A stretch of DNA of 64,000 nt from Phoronis australis (Eukaryota > Animalia > Phoronida): positions 1 through 64,000 of the forward strand of contig NMRA01000210.1 of the NCBI GenBank assembly GCA_002633005.1, read 5' to 3'. This document shows positions 10,877 to 46,455 of this stretch, piece by piece (the stretch's first letter is position 1; every line of letters begins with the position of its first letter). The notes beneath the pieces are model-generated. The model ran no database searches, was not told where the DNA came from, and was given only the letters and a program-made list of their open reading frames with translations. Both the position numbers and the translations under genes were made by a program.

Positions 10877-11686
10877 TCACAAGATCTTCTCCATTGACGT
10901 CCTGTATACATAACCGTCTCCTAGTAATCTTGATGGAATAATGGGCGAAAGCCAAGTAATGTACCATTTTTCTCCAAAAACTTCAATGATATTTTCTTTG
11001 AGTCCAAGGTTGTATTGCTTGTACCCTTTCTGCCGTTCATGCTGAGTCTGTCCTAGATATACCTGCACAAGCTGTGTATACATCAAGTATGATATGAGGC
11101 AAAATAACACCACTCCTATTGTCATTATAATTGCTATGTAGAGTTGATGCAGAGAATAATATCCTAAAACAAAGTACACATGAGGCATGGGGATTGAAAG
11201 CACTGTCCAAATGGAATATCCAAATAGGTGCAGTGCATTGTGGTGAAGGTTAAATATGTTCCCATAAAGCGATAGAATCCACATGTAGAATATCATCCAG
11301 AAGTAGTAACGATGGTTGCTGTGTCCAACACAAGTAGCAGCAAACCAGCAATGGTGGTCACGTTTGAGAACACAAACATCGCAAAATTTGCAGTGATGTC
11401 CTCTATCGGGTACTGGTTTTTCACACACAGAACATTGTTGGGTGATGTCCCGCCTTGTAGTTTCCTTTCCACTCCTGTTTGTGATGTCAACAGCATGCAT
11501 GTAGTAGAGATTCGAGTATATATTTATCACTAACCACATGTAGAAAATGATGTGATAATAAAGATATGTTGGACTGTTATGGTAGCTCGGGTAGACAATA
11601 CAGTACTCGTAGAAGGCCATATGGGGTCCACCGTGAATTAGGGCTAATAAGGCAAGCCTGTCTTGAGTGGATCGAGGTATCCACAT
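10877..11686 (-). CDS. DHHC-type palmitoyltransferase (ZDHHC22/24-like), single coding exon
   Basis: 269-aa ORF with a cysteine-rich domain CSVCEKPVPDRGHHCKFCDVCVLKRDHHCWFAATCVGHSNHRYY, hydrophobic segments, a TxxE motif (GQTQHE) and the C-terminal YNLGLKENIIEVFG motif. A splice acceptor lies just upstream of the ATG (~11702), and AATAAA is on the minus strand at 10802-10807. Confidence 0.92.
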   Translation of the reverse strand: MWIPRSTQDRLALLALIHGGPHMAFYEYCIVYPSYHNSPTYLYYHIIFYMWLVINIYSNLYYMHAVDITNRSGKETTRRDITQQCSVCEKPVPDRGHHCKFCDVCVLKRDHHCWFAATCVGHSNHRYYFWMIFYMWILSLYGNIFNLHHNALHLFGYSIWTVLSIPMPHVYFVLGYYSLHQLYIAIIMTIGVVLFCLISYLMYTQLVQVYLGQTQHERQKGYKQYNLGLKENIIEVFGEKWYITWLSPIIPSRLLGDGYVYRTSMEKIL

Positions 11687-12467
11687 GTCTTGGGATCAGT
11701 TCTGAAAAACAAGACAAGAGCTCAATGATGTCTGGTTCAGTAAGCTCAATAGGCACATAAGTTCTTACATATTTCTACTACGAGCTGACACTTTGAACGG
11801 TTCCATGGGAAAATACAAAGAACATACCAACAGGCCTATGATTAAGTGCCAATGTGTCTCACAAACCTGGGGAAAACACACGTTGGCTGGGAATAACTGA
11901 ATGTGCCTCCTTGTCATCCTTTGAGGGAAATAACACACATTAGCTAGGACCTCTTTCTTCATTTGCTGGGACATACACTGGTGAAAGCTCAATCCCAGGA
12001 CTAGAAAAATATATTTCACCTTGGCAAAATTTCCTAGAAAGTTCATTATGACAACACTATTGTCCATTCTGCACTTACTAAATCAATTACTCTAATGCGG
12101 TAATAATCCCATGCTCTATTGAAGAATTAAACTAAATTTTGGTTAAGTAAAATTCGATTAAAACATGGGTCTAAAACATGAAGTGTTCGATCCTGGTTCA
12201 GAGGAAATTTGATTTTTGTTCTTGCAAAAAACTTAACAGTTTGTTATTCCTCAAGACCATACTGGTGAATAAAATGACACCATTAGTAGCCAACAAGTCA
12301 ACTTATTTATACAGCGTGGTCTTGATCAATATTAAGTGAATTGCCGCCTCTCTGTGATTTGCAAGCCCAGAAATCTTACTGAATCCGAAAGTTTTCCGAA
12401 ACCGGCAATCTGAGACCACTTTAATAACGTGGTTTAAATGAACAAAAATTGAGGCAGAAGACAGGTC

Positions 12468-13009
12468 TGTAGTAATAGCCGAGATTACCCGGCCCGGGGA
12501 TCGAACACGCGACCCCCATAAAACCGGCAAGCGTGCTAACCATTCAGCTAATAGGCAATTGCCCGTTAGCGAGTAGCTAACAGAGGCTCATATAATTCAC
12601 CGGAAGCACATCTACAACATTCCCCCCTTTCCTACGGAACGGGCACGCGACAGGAAGGTGAACACCAGGATGTCTCGCATACAGGTCATCAACGTCCCTT
12701 GGTACCTTTACCACCACAACACAGGTGAACACAAGGTCGTCTCTCATACAGGTCCTTGACTCCTGGAACCTTCCACGCGCGCAGTCCCGAGGTCCGTGGG
12801 TACTAGTTGGCAGTGCTTCATCGGTAGATCATCCGTTTGCCGACTACGCCATTTGTAGTAATAGCCGAGATTACCCGACCCGGGGATCGAACCCGTGACC
12901 CCCATAAAACCGGCAAGCGTGCTAACCATTCAGCTAATAGGCAATTGCCCGTTAGTGAGTAGCTAACAGAGGCTCATATAATTCACCGGAACTGAGCACA
13001 TCTACAACA
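12468..13009 (-). mobile_element. Complete TRIM (non-autonomous LTR retrotransposon) with tRNA-derived LTRs, Helenus-like
   Basis: LTRs at 12468-12619 and 12854-13009 (TGT...ACA; they differ by 4 substitutions and one 4-bp indel). Target-site duplication (TSD) GGTC at 12464-12467 and 13010-13013. Primer-binding site (PBS) TGGCGTAGTCGGCA (minus strand, 12851-12838). Polypurine tract (PPT) AGGAAAGGGGGGAA directly before the 3' LTR. Each LTR holds A/B boxes TAGCTGAATGGTTAG ... GTTCGATCCCC. Confidence 0.92.
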
Positions 13010-13199
13010 GGTCATTGCTTCAATGTTGTTTATTTCAGTATGTTGCAATCACAGGCATCTTTAATCGGCCCTCAACTATATATTAATATGATATTGTCGA
13101 GGGCGGATTAAAGGTGCCTGTAGTACTGTGGTTGCAATTGGAATACAGAATTATAGACTAGTGTCCACGTGTATGGCAGACTGACTAGACAAAGCAAAC

Positions 13200-13460
13200 A
13201 ACATGCTTGGCGGTTCGCCAAGTAAGAAATCTGACATAAAAAGGAGTATCTTTCACACATACTTGGCGCTTGCCACGTAATAAACCTGAAATCAAAAGTT
13301 TGTATCTTCGACACATACTGGGCGTTCGCCAAGTAACACGTCTGAAAACAAGTGAAAAGTGAGTATCTTCGAATTTGACACACTTGGCGTTCGTCAAGTA
13401 ATGCATCTGAAAACAAAAGTACGTATCTCCGAAACATACTTGGCGTTCACCAAGTAATAA
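13200..13460. repeat. Degenerate ~60-bp tandem array (5 units), each with a palindromic core
   Basis: Consensus approximately CACATACTTGGCGTTCGCCAAGTAA...CTGAAAACAAAAGT...GTATCTTCGA. The core TACTTGGCG-TT-CGCCAAGTA is self-complementary. Confidence 0.85.
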
Positions 13461-13478
13461 ATCGCTTAACAAAACCAC

Positions 13479-34049: not shown

Positions 34050-35070
34050 TTAATTTATTTATTTATTATTGTGATATTTAAAATGAGGGTGGCCTCTTCA
34101 GTGATAGCACTGCTTCTTTCCAAGAGGGCCCTCAACAAGAAAAACAGTAATATAATACAATTAAGTAATAAAACAACAATGAAATATAGGTAACAAAGAT
34201 ACAATTAAAACAGGTTGAGAATTAAGACAATAACTGAATGACGAATAATGGTAAAAATTTAACTAAGACAGATGAAATAAATTAAGAGATGACTCTAGAC
34301 AGTGAGAGTATTTACGGCAATGAAAAAAATGATATGATTAAGACAGGCAGGGTATAAAAGGTTAGGTAAATTACAGCCATTTTTTAGTATTTACTTTAAA
34401 TGTAGTAATTGAATTGGACCGTTTAATTTCTGGGCTAAGAGAATTCCATATTATAGCAGCTGCATAGATAAAAGATCTCTTGCCCGTCTCGGTTTTAATT
34501 TTTTTAGAAGAAACATTGCCAGCAACAGAAGAACGTGTAGAATATACAGCCCCACTGCTATTGAATTTACTGCTGAGATATGCTGGAGCCAAGCCATTGA
34601 TACATCTGTACATACAACAGGCAGAGAGATATTTATTTCTTTGTCTTACTTTCATGAATCCCAGCTTGGAATACAAGTCGTCAACCCTAGTGTCCCTAAT
34701 TTTAGTACCCAGAATAGCCCTGGCGGCTCTATTTTGGATTGCTTGGACTTTGCTGACAAGTGTGTCACTAGTGTGCCCTCAAACCGGTAAACAACAATAT
34801 GAGGCTGAATAATAGAATGGTAAAGGGTCTTAAGAGTACTGACATTAAGAAATTTGCCTAGACGTTTAAGTACACCGATTTTCTTTGATAATTTCTTTGT
34901 GATATGATCTATTTACATATCAAATTTAAGATTGGGATCTAAAGTAAAGCCCAAGTACTTAAACTTGTCAACGATTCTCGATGGGAGAACCGTTGATAGA
35001 AAGGGATAGTTTTTGTTTTAATTTCTGGTGGGTTCCAAACAGCATCGACTTGGTTTTACTAACGTTAAGA
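34050..35070 (-). mobile_element. 5'-truncated L2/CR1-group LINE (end of RT, C-terminus and 3' UTR)
   Basis: Broken frames encode LNVSKTKSMLFGT...INGSPIE, KFKYLGFTLDPNL and MYRCINGLAPAYL...GKRSFIYAAAIIWNSL. These are followed by an AT-rich 3' UTR with a GAGGG...CCCTC stem-loop and an (AAT/AAAT) tail. Confidence 0.85.
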
Positions 35071-42500: not shown

Positions 42501-45500
42501 GAGTGGTTTCTAAATGAGTTGAATATTGCCGGAGACCAGTATTGTGAAAAGGTACACAGTACAGTAAGAGCAATCGGACAACAATATTTCAGTTTTTGTG
42601 TTTTCAAAAGGCTCTAAGATCACACAGAGATGGTACAGGCTCGTGCGTTGGACACGGCGTGGCACTACACGGTGGTTTAAAGGGCTACGCTGTGCTCAAC
42701 ACATTTCGAAGAAACGTGCTTCGACGCGTCGTTGGAATGGAGATTTGCTGAAGGTTTCTCTATCGTGTAAGGGCATTTGATGGACAAAAGTAATGTGTTG
42801 AGTTGAACCACAGCTCAATGGGCTCGTGCCGGATGTCACTGTCAGGCGCACATACACCGTAGGTCTATTGAATATCATCCTCAGCATCAAATTTTAAGAG
42901 TCTATGCTTCTTACAGATTTTTTTGGGAATGCATGCTATCCACATATACGTCATATACGATGGATAAAAGAGTTGTAGTGTTGTACCGTTGCTGGGAACG
43001 TGGTTGTCAGGCCGCATACATATTGAGTGATCTAGTTTCACTACGGCCGTCAGAGCAGTGTAGTTTGTAATTTTGGAACAGACAAGACAGAAACAAGTAT
43101 CATTTATTAGAAAAAAAAATCCAGTTAGCATCACAACAATTAGACATGATCGTTCCTGACACACGCACTGGGCTTTCGAAGAACGAAATCAATATGGCCG
43201 CTACTCGCCACCGTGCTTTGACACTGAGTTAAGGTAAAACGTTTGGTTATAGATTACAGTTCGAGACATACAGTATATAACTCCACACGTACTTGTGGTT
43301 AGAAAATCAAACCGTGATTCAAAGGCTACAATGGCTATACTCGCAAATCAGGGGCCTGTTCCAAGAAACTGACTTAAGTTCACTTTTGACTTAAGTTTAA
43401 GATTTGTCTTAAATTCCAAACTTTGAAACTTCCACATTCGGTAAGTTAGACAAAATTAAGACAAAACTTGTGTCAAACACTGAAGTCAAACATGAGATCT
43501 CTTTCTTGAACTGGTTTTGAGACAACTTTAACTTTTACCTCATAATTTACTAAAATTTAGGATTTGTCTTAGCTAAGTCAGTTTTGTTAGAACGAGCCCC
43601 AGGTCTGTCCGCAGACTGAGTAGGACTGAGTCGGCTTCACTCGCCGAAGGAGCTGGTCCGGGAGGGTCAAGTTCGTACGACTTCAAACCCGCAAAGTCCT
43701 GCAATATAGCGAGGTCTAACTCATTATCTAGTCACCTGTTGCCTGAGTGTCGTCTGCGATTTATTACGCCTTCACATGCACTTAAGTGATTTAGGTGATT
43801 TATTGAGAAATATACACATGGCCATAGGCCCCAAGTAAATCATGTACACGACAGAACATTGTTAGGTGCCACGTTTCAAACTGGAGAATACATTGATTGC
43901 AAGATAGACGAATTTAATAAGTAGGATATCCGGAGTTCTTATGAGAGATTCAAATTTAGATGTCGAGGGAGAATGACAAAACGATCACTTAAGTACTTAA
44001 CCCGAAAGTGTTGGTACGCACTACAAACTAACACAACGTGGTATTCGTCCTCAGTCTACACATCCCGAATTACATAACTCACACAACCTGTTTTCATAAG
44101 GAATATTTGTGTAGCGACCTCTTTCCACTAGTAACGAATGATTTGAACAATCGATTCAGAGACTGGATAAAAATGGGTTGGATATCAACCATTTCTAGAT
44201 AATTCTCAAGACGATACATTGTTTTATACCTCACATAGTAAGGCAGTTTTGCGTTACATTCGATATCAGATTGCCAACCTTGCAAATAACAGTCGTTGAC
44301 ACGTCGAGAAAAAACTGTCAAGAAATACGCTTGGTTTGCCACACCCTGATTAATCCATACATCTGAAAAGCCATACATAGACAGAAGTTTCCTTACAAAA
44401 CTTGCCCAATTATAGCAAGATCTTCCAATCACGTCTGCCTGAAAAAGCATATCATATGCAGCTTTTACCCCACGATTACTAGGCATCTCCAGTATGTTGA
44501 ACCAGTATTTTATACAAGAAACAAAATATTTAGTAGACAATGGGAATCGACCACATTCTCCCATAAGTGCCGAGTTTGAACAACAACTGCCTACTCCTAA
44601 AATGCGTTTACAAAATTTGATATGTACATTTTCCAATTGTTCATATTCCTTAAAGCCCAATATCTCAGCGCCGTAATACAGAGAGGGGTAAACTATTTTA
44701 TCGAACAAGTGAAAGGCTATTGACGGGGGCAGATCACGACATCTTCGCCTTAGTTTACAAACTGCAGAGGCAGCTTTATTTGCTTGACTAGATAAGGCTT
44801 TAATGGCTTTGGTCCACGAAACTTTTGGAGTAATAAGTAGTGCAAGGTATTTGTAATGAGGCACCACATCAACCAATGTTCCATTGTAAAACCATTTCTC
44901 ATATCGTCTAAGGGGACCGCCATTTCTGAAAACGACCACTTTAGTTTTCTTCAAGTTTACTTGCATGCCCCATGATTTGCAAAATTCTGCCAAACAATTA
45001 AGCATACGTCTTAAGTTGATGGCGGTAGAGGAACATAACACCATATCGTCTGCGTACAGTAGGGAGTTGACTCTTGGCATTTGTTCGCTGTTTTTATGGG
45101 CTATTAATATAACTTTTTACACTCAGTTGATCCCGAAATTCATTTAGATACAACACAAATAATGATGGGCTGATCATGCAACCCTGGCGACTACCTACAG
45201 TACAATCAAAGAACTCTGTAAGACCATCTTGAGTTTTCACACAAGTGCGCAACTTACTATACATAGAGCGGATTATATTGAAAATTTTACCATGCACATC
45301 AATGTTTTTCAATCTATGGAATAGTAAATTATGTGGGATTCGATCGAAGGCCTTCGAGAAATCTACAAAGGCACAGTAAAATTTTCCACCCTGCCGAATC
45401 AAATACTTGTGGCACATAGCTCGAAGTGTAAACACTTGGTCAATCGTAGAGTAGCCTTTTCTAAACCCAGCTTGAGACTCATAAAGTTTATCATTATTTT

Positions 45501-46455
45501 CAGCCCAGTTATAAAGACAATTATTTAAAAGTTTGGTATAAATTTTTCCCAAAGTAGACAACAGGGAGATACCTCTATAGTTATTTTCTTCATTGATATT
45601 GCCTTGTTTATGTACTGGAGTAAGCACTTCGTCACACTATGTCCAGAATCAAAAATTGCATTAAATAACATATGCAAGACTGGCACTATCGTTACCTTTG
45701 TGCACAAAGTACATGCACTTAAAATGCCCAGCCAACTCACGAGGCATCAATTTTTAATGAAATTGGCAAGGCAAGTAAAACCGTTGCTCAAAAAATATGT
45801 AGTACCACCGATAGTCCAAAAAATTGCTTGCCCCACAGATTAATCTATATGTTATATGTACCAAAAAACTCTGGCGTAGAGTCTTAATAAGTTAATACGT
45901 TCGAGTATAGTCTGCCAATCAGCGTAAACAGTTGTGTGAAATTTTGAAATATGTAATTATGAAATAAACCCCGATTTATCACTGATATCGTCGGCATTTC
46001 CAGGGAAACCATCCTCCCATGTGAACCCCTGAAGAAGAGTTACATCCACACCTCCAGTCACGAGACTCTTCTGTACACGACAATGGGTCAATTATTGGAC
46101 AACGCCTGTGAAGAGTGTCCTGATCACGAGGCATTCGTTGTGTGTGACACCAACGAAAGGTTGACTTATCGACAGATTAAAAAGCAGGTAGGCTACTACC
46201 GGATGTTTTCAAAACCAGTTTTAAGCAGACCGACATGAAGCACGCTCAGATGTAATGGATAGTTTTACCTGAAATACACAAGCAAGCTTGAACTCAATGC
46301 GGGAAATTAACGTCATTGTTGGGGAAAAACCTTTAATAGACATTTATTAATAAAACTTTAGTTCACAACAAGAACACTGCGACCTGACCCGAGAAAAGGA
46401 AAAACATTCACGGAAATATAACAGTAACAGTTATATATATATATATATGTATGTA

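Follow-up and report, generated by a model that had tools for sequence, protein, structure and literature searches.

The window analysed here, a stretch of 64,000 nt from Phoronis australis, contains a DHHC palmitoyltransferase reading frame (10877-11695), an exon of a class I tRNA synthetase and, from 15686 on, exons of TMTC4. In a TMTC4 tree of 23 rows, built without arthropod, nemertean or phoronid rows, the window sequence groups with those of brachiopods, annelids and molluscs in a 98/94 clade that gives no branching order inside, and its best identity to any row of the tree is 59%. The host is likely a lophotrochozoan; a search for ZDHHC homologues did not place it. The element described in the following shares its strand with the DHHC frame and is found some 780 bp upstream of the start codon of the latter, past a splice-acceptor-like site at 11702-11703. 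It probably sits in a 5'-UTR intron of the DHHC gene, a location in which host pre-mRNA could carry it. The element is a gene-less TRIM of 542 bp (12468-13009), the sense of which is the minus strand, and is composed of the following parts:

12464-12467, left copy of the TSD, GGTC
12468-12619, minus strand, 3' LTR of 152 bp with TG...CA ends; contigs of other copies break at 12619 and 12468
12497-12507, minus strand, B box of the 3' LTR, one letter off the motif
12520-12523, minus strand, T4 run between A and B box of the 3' LTR, directly after a predicted U3-dependent stem
12540-12550, minus strand, A box of the 3' LTR
12554-12563, perfect 10-nt palindrome of the 3' LTR, forming the core of an imperfect 24-nt palindrome at 12547-12570
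12565-12581, minus strand, hairpin of the 3' LTR with a 6-bp core and a 5-nt loop, just 5' of the palindrome
12620-12633, minus strand, PPT, adjoining the 3' LTR
12620-12853, minus strand, non-coding interior of 234 bp
12656-12687 and 12723-12754, 32-nt direct repeat within the interior, 88% identical
12838-12851, minus strand, PBS, 2 nt inside the 5' LTR
12854-13009, minus strand, 5' LTR of 156 bp with TG...CA ends; contigs of other copies break at 12853/12854
12883-12893, minus strand, B box of the 5' LTR
12906-12909, minus strand, T4 run between A and B box of the 5' LTR, a possible weak Pol III terminator
12926-12936, minus strand, A box of the 5' LTR
12940-12949, perfect 10-nt palindrome GGCAATTGCC of the 5' LTR, inside an imperfect 24-nt palindrome at 12933-12956
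12951-12967, minus strand, hairpin of the 5' LTR, as in the 3' LTR with one stem pair broken
13010-13013, right copy of the TSD, GGTC

The two LTRs, their terminal letters, the GGTC duplication, the PBS, the PPT and the interior are thus all present in the sequence with the lengths given in an earlier note on this DNA, and the longest stop-to-stop frame anywhere in the element, 83 aa, agrees with its statement that the interior holds neither gag nor pol. The LTRs differ from each other by four substitutions (4/152, 2.6%) and one 4-nt indel. Taken alone, the GGTC duplication is weak evidence with a chance expectation of about 1 in 256, but the ends of the element are fixed independently by the contigs of other copies. 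Within the 64-kb window, the PBS is the sole match to its sequence at up to two mismatches, and no second copy of the element was found. We conclude that 12468-13009 is a real TRIM, a copy of rather recent age that belongs to a new family of the animal Helenus type, a classification in which our confidence is higher than in the transcription and mobilisation scheme proposed below. The idea that the tRNA-like part serves as a self-primer was rejected given the presence of a canonical PBS.

Both LTRs carry the tRNA-type A and B boxes that had been read from them before, 43 nt apart and in the sense of the element. The 5' LTR holds the window's only instance of the strict pattern, and none of 20000 dinucleotide shuffles of the LTR reproduces it; the 3' LTR misses it by a single B-box letter. 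The tRNA scan of the LTR that had been proposed earlier was performed with ARAGORN, which predicts no tRNA gene in the window, and with Rfam, whose 12 matches at E<=10 include none in the tRNA-like part of the element and none to a tRNA or 5S family, so that the boxes alone are tRNA-like. In addition to the T4 run between the boxes of each LTR, an AT-rich stretch occupies LTR positions 26-34; no T run follows the B box in the element.

Seven of the public sequencing runs listed hold the stretch searched or part of it, five of them, from one organism, at 0.59-0.65 of its words. We compared four runs with this stretch and inferred further copies from contigs that leave it at the LTR termini. Among the loose ends listed for run X1, 54 contigs depart at 12619 with an agreement among their flanks of 0.36, and 12 and 20 contigs depart at 12853 and 12854 with agreements of 0.44 and 0.40, respectively; those listed for run X2 comprise 16 contigs departing at 12619, 10 at 12854 and four at 12468. 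The low agreement of the flanks at the LTR termini indicates unrelated flanking DNA and hence a dispersed family. A lone LTR with unrelated DNA on either side was found in one contig (X2 record 11), some contigs join LTR to interior, and contigs of run X1 contain both junctions of the 12468-13009 insertion. The element is therefore a member of a dispersed multi-copy family with a solo LTR, as the earlier note had expected. Related pieces are also carried by a second organism (run X6). Summed contig depth in X1 reaches about 217,000 in the LTR compared to about 40 in the flanks, values that are not a copy number. Of the six larger sets of departing contigs (X1 and X2; 12619, 12854 and 12468), five have CTAC or CTAT as the majority letters next to the LTR ends, hinting at a target-site preference, with an agreement that is low (0.36-0.59). 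A 416-nt contig of run X4 that spans LTR, interior and LTR was not counted as expression, as this run is only guessed to be RNA.

The PBS corresponds to the first 14 nt of an oligonucleotide template for human tRNA-Ser(UGA) with CCA (in the relevant part of PMC3299991), and all 14 nt are complementary to the 3' end of this tRNA. The tRNA-Ser primer assigned to the element earlier is thereby borne out against the human tRNA, which is not that of the host. Scanning for the LTR end followed by the PBS (TACA, gap, PBS) yielded 100 metagenome loci and seven loci from a viral collection; two of these 107 were excluded before counting because of their labels and 105 were analysed. The complement to the tRNA extends by four more letters in 27 of the 105 loci. 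All four long pol frames scanned beside the PBS contain reverse transcriptase, RNase H and integrase in sequence, which is the Gypsy order, and three of them show a protease match ahead of the reverse transcriptase. Among the four two-LTR elements that were checked, a 4-bp duplication was exact in one by script and was seen in two more by eye after a boundary shift of 2 nt, with one mismatch in the fourth. A Gypsy-order helper class with the same PBS, LTR end and TSD length exists in other genomes, and the proposal of a Gypsy-type helper thus gains support from pol frames outside the host. None of the 105 loci has the A/B pattern within 400 nt upstream of the PBS or any likeness to the element past the LTR end and PBS; the seven viral-collection matches yielded nothing useful, and a 22-nt LTR pattern had no locus in the metagenome collection.

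Nine of the loci (L001, L010, L023, L024, L026, L029, L032, L059 and L084) belong to a multi-copy LTR family of 3.2-3.4 kb with LTRs of about 170 bp in other assemblies, which shares the PBS, has an LTR end 82-83% identical over 36-40 nt including the PBS, and is without A and B boxes. At L003, positions 1647-2708 hold the gag frame of a Gypsy-order element with the same PBS, showing a weak PNMA-family match (E 6e-05, below the cut-off).

Helenus elements (TRIMp3) have been described by Kojima (2024) as TRIMs of 311-1263 bp with tRNA-like A boxes (TRGCY, YGG) and B boxes (GGTTC) in their LTRs, a PBS and a PPT, those of animals having 4-bp TSDs and primer sites shared with Gypsy elements (PMC10886601). 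The same work favours several origins of the group and states that the means by which TRIMs' dependence on a helper is maintained are not known. The Phoronis element has 542 bp, two LTRs and no coding capacity; it possesses A and B boxes, PBS, PPT and a 4-bp TSD, no functional tRNA according to ARAGORN and Rfam, and dispersed copies with a lone LTR. Every structural Helenus feature examined is hence present, in keeping with the affinity suggested before. Among the published families seen, Helenus-2_MyGa, Helenus-2_MoPh and Helenus-2_LimFor are closest in layout (LTR 141-156, interior 226-268, tRNA-Ser-type primer), and Helenus-2_PiNo, Helenus-3_PiNo and Helenus-1_BaPl have a hairpin of the same letter type. 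The Phoronis element shares with the Helenus entries consulted the length class (<1 kb), boxes in sense orientation, PBS and PPT, the 4-bp TSD and, by eye, the module described below. It differs in the letters that precede the A box (TAT, not TT), in having its T run (T4) between the two boxes and none after the B box, and in a PBS that matches the end of the other tRNA-Ser isoacceptor, which is absent from the two tRNA-Ser types of Fig. S2. None of the 10-16-nt words tested matched the PMC10886601 data file, in which line wraps could hide a word, and no match was found by eye among the non-insect animal Helenus entries in the portion of the supplement consulted; measured against these, the family is indeed uncatalogued, as had been considered possible. 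The later literature on Helenus that we found only cites the group. A new family within a described kind is of modest value, adding a primer type and probably a host lineage.

Other TRIMs and LTR elements are more distant. Cassandra of plants carries a 5S promoter in its LTRs and has an R of 18 nt (PMC10886601, introduction). According to the part of PMC7215508 consulted, it resembles the Phoronis element in being a TRIM, in the internal Pol III promoter that each of its LTRs contains and in an RNA that starts and ends inside the LTRs, but differs in its 5S-type promoter, its plant hosts, its tRNA-Met-type primer site and in that its transcription has been shown. The nemertean TRIM Ajax is similar in LTR length (154-163) and in having a Pol III-type promoter part, while it has 5S boxes, a 5-bp TSD and a tRNA-Leu primer compared to the 4-bp TSD of the Phoronis element (PMC10886601). 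A 5S-derived promoter of the Cassandra and Ajax kind received no match in our Rfam scan, and the boxes are tRNA-type. The biv-TRIM is likewise a TRIM of marine invertebrates, but has no canonical PBS, bears inverted repeats in its interior, and no tRNA-type promoter is reported for it in the sections of PMC6934838 consulted.

Two features go beyond the earlier note, namely the T4 run between the boxes and a module of palindrome and hairpin directly before the A box. The 10-nt palindrome starts 13 nt and is centred 8 nt before the A-box T, and the surrounding 24-nt palindrome, the right arm of which is the start of the A box, pairs at 11 of 12 positions in the 3' LTR and at 10 of 12 in the 5' LTR; a score this good is reached at only 4 of the window's 63976 centres. 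The upstream hairpin shares its 3' arm with the 24-nt palindrome, of which it is the left arm. If the fold of the LTR is made to stop at the A box, the pairs of the hairpin in the 3' LTR are predicted with a probability of 0.97-0.98; the fold z-score of the module alone is -1.68, and an 8-bp hairpin ahead of a 10-nt palindrome is also found at three others of the 144 palindromes in the window. For the 24-mer, computed energies are -32.2 kcal/mol as a duplex of two and -10.5 kcal/mol as a hairpin. Among the 40 of 72 variants listed for the sequencing runs, none lies within 12509-12568, which covers A box and palindrome of the 3' LTR; a listed variant at 12575 is situated in the hairpin loop. 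In the second organism, a variant at 12569 preserves the pairing as G-U, and one contig (X6) is changed at 12942, which disrupts the 10-mer palindrome.

For a comparison across families, we tallied by eye the published consensus LTRs of related families in the part of the PMC10886601 supplement consulted, permitting G-U pairs and one unpaired central base in the self-complementary 8-12-mers. Bivalve Helenus LTRs have TT before the A box in 33 of 51 cases, 32 of which show a self-complementary 8-12-mer there, and the module is seen in all nemertean (3/3), coelacanth (2/2) and ostariophysan (14/14) LTRs; most module-bearing LTRs also show the upstream hairpin. In two sturgeon-group LTRs the palindrome is present and the A box is unclear. 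The module is absent from 18 of the 51 bivalve LTRs, from all three brachiopod LTRs and from the ctenophore and wasp LTRs consulted, and can thus not be required by all Helenus. One group of wasp LTRs has a different, longer hairpin that ends just before the A box and no separate palindrome (PMC10886601, Data S1, as far as consulted). In the published module-bearing LTRs, the palindrome is centred 7-8 nt before the A-box T, as compared to 8 nt in the Phoronis element, and its central four letters vary by family (TTAA, GATC, GTAC, TCGA, ATAT, CATG, TGCA, ACGT and CCGG; AATT here). Centres that change and yet stay self-complementary are more than a plain hairpin loop would require, and most departures from complementarity take the form of G-U on the sense strand, an indication of pairing in RNA. 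The words 'hairpin', 'palindrom' and 'dimer' each have 0 occurrences in the main text of PMC10886601. The module, as read by eye from the LTR consensuses of that work, is new relative to its main text and likely helps to pair or close the RNA of the element. An analogy is provided by Ty1, the RNA of which dimerises via the 5' palindromes PAL1 and PAL2 (PMC6844567, in part): in both cases short self-complementary sequences lie near the 5' end of an LTR-retrotransposon RNA, but Ty1 is an autonomous Copia-type element transcribed by Pol II and its palindromes have a tested function, so that the likeness is an analogy only.

How might such an element be transcribed and copied? In tRNA genes, Pol III starts 14-20 nt before the A box. 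By the same rule, the RNA of the element would begin at a pyrimidine-purine step 14-20 nt ahead of its A box, which is the start of the palindrome, and LTR positions 54, 57 and 60 are candidate steps. The RNA would then measure about 400-440 nt. Its end would lie in the 3' LTR beyond the palindrome, and the simplest site for it is the T4 run: the polymerase would pass the run of the 5' LTR, and that of the 3' LTR would be made stronger by a stem that requires U3. Simple leaky termination would also work. As R would include the palindrome, the direct repeats at the two RNA ends would also be mutually complementary and are predicted to pair, either so that a single RNA is closed for minus-strand transfer or so that two RNAs are joined to a dimer for packaging.

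Predicted folds are in line with parts of this scheme. Pairing of the 5' end with the 3' end has a predicted probability of 0.99-1.0 in all six choices of assumed start and end (folds of 404-437 nt), a result that follows by construction, since the palindrome is placed at both ends and this placing would itself be part of the scheme. Folded up to T4, the 3' LTR is predicted to make a stem that draws on U3 and ends directly ahead of the run (z -2.42), the 5' LTR copy folded to the same point reaches z -1.63, and the part that a 5' transcript would hold is unremarkable (z 0.09). When the full length is folded, end-to-end pairing takes the place of this U3 stem (probability 0), so that its role as a terminator would depend on folding during transcription. 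In human cells, a short U tract stops Pol III only if RNA structure is close by (10.1101/2020.09.11.294140, as far as consulted). Lying about 45 nt after the presumed start, the T4 run could also abort transcripts in the 5' LTR. On balance, we are reasonably confident that the element is a dispersed Helenus-type TRIM that is likely transcribed by Pol III from inside its 5' LTR and likely copied and inserted by proteins of autonomous Gypsy elements using a tRNA-Ser primer.

An ordinary Pol II-transcribed TRIM would be an alternative as regards the promoter, with the boxes being a SINE relic or a TFIIIC-binding insulator and Pol III, if involved at all, making a 45-nt by-product that ends at T4. 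Such a by-product would fit the T4 run between the boxes of both LTRs, the AT-rich stretch could serve as a TATA-like element, the B box of the 3' LTR is one letter off, and Kojima regards the Pol III promoters of Helenus as unvalidated (PMC10886601). However, the boxes keep a tRNA-like spacing while the cloverleaf is lost, the listed variants spare the A box together with the palindrome of the 3' LTR, and unstructured short U tracts are weak terminators in human cells (10.1101/2020.09.11.294140, in the part consulted). We consider this account unlikely and retain Pol III transcription from within the 5' LTR.

A different question is that of descent. The lineage might have captured a SINE independently, giving an element that works like Helenus, with a module that arose by convergence or as a by-product when the A box was copied by fold-back. 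The lack of any tested 10-16-nt word in common with the Helenus data file and a primer type unlike all those listed in the part of the source consulted are compatible with such a capture, and Kojima favours several origins in any case (PMC10886601). Against it speaks the order and spacing of hairpin, palindrome and A box, which by eye equals that of the bivalve, nemertean, coelacanth and fish Helenus consulted; this region is not tRNA-derived. As it is structure that defines Helenus, the element would keep the name in either case. This origin appears quite improbable to us. That two SINE copies or a local duplication merely mimic an LTR element, the case which the earlier note had named as refuting its reading, might be inferred from the tRNA-type boxes, which are typical of SINEs, and from three further letters that match before both GGTC copies. 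The TG...CA ends, the PBS and the PPT are in place, though, an A-rich tail is lacking, there are contigs in which LTR and interior are joined, and other copies stop precisely at the LTR termini, beyond which the flanks are unrelated; these contigs rule the reading out, and we give it practically no credence.

Coming back to a shared Helenus ancestry, we tentatively suggest, at somewhat less than even chances, that most non-insect animal Helenus (the Phoronis element and those of bivalves, nemerteans, coelacanth and carp-like fish) represent one ancient lineage, which would be marked by a hairpin and palindrome RNA signal forming the R of a Pol III transcript, with both ends pairing for strand transfer or dimerisation. 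If this is true, the module would amount to a sequence-independent cis signal, by means of which an element without genes could draw on different Gypsy helpers. Lying outside the tRNA-derived part, it offers a concrete cis signal to mutate and a route to mapping R in an LTR RNA made by Pol III, and it provides a character for testing common descent across phyla.

The surroundings of the element hold further repeats. An inverted repeat of about 80 bp that can form a hairpin adjoins it at 13045-13129, is also covered by many contigs and is probably a small MITE; miRNA-like Rfam matches at 13044-13130, outside the element, are far below the gathering threshold. At a distance of 190 bp from the element (13201-13463), a 56-bp unit whose core is palindromic is repeated 4.5 times in tandem, an array that lies ahead of what is likely a promoter region separating the DHHC gene from TMTC4. 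On the other side, three of the runs show an increased contig depth and loose ends at a short repeated piece (12227-12280), within an inverted repeat at 12245-12331. Farther away, a reverse transcriptase of a non-LTR element extends over two frames at 44094-45636 (Pfam RVT_1), and a shorter, remnant-like frame is located at 34371-34778.
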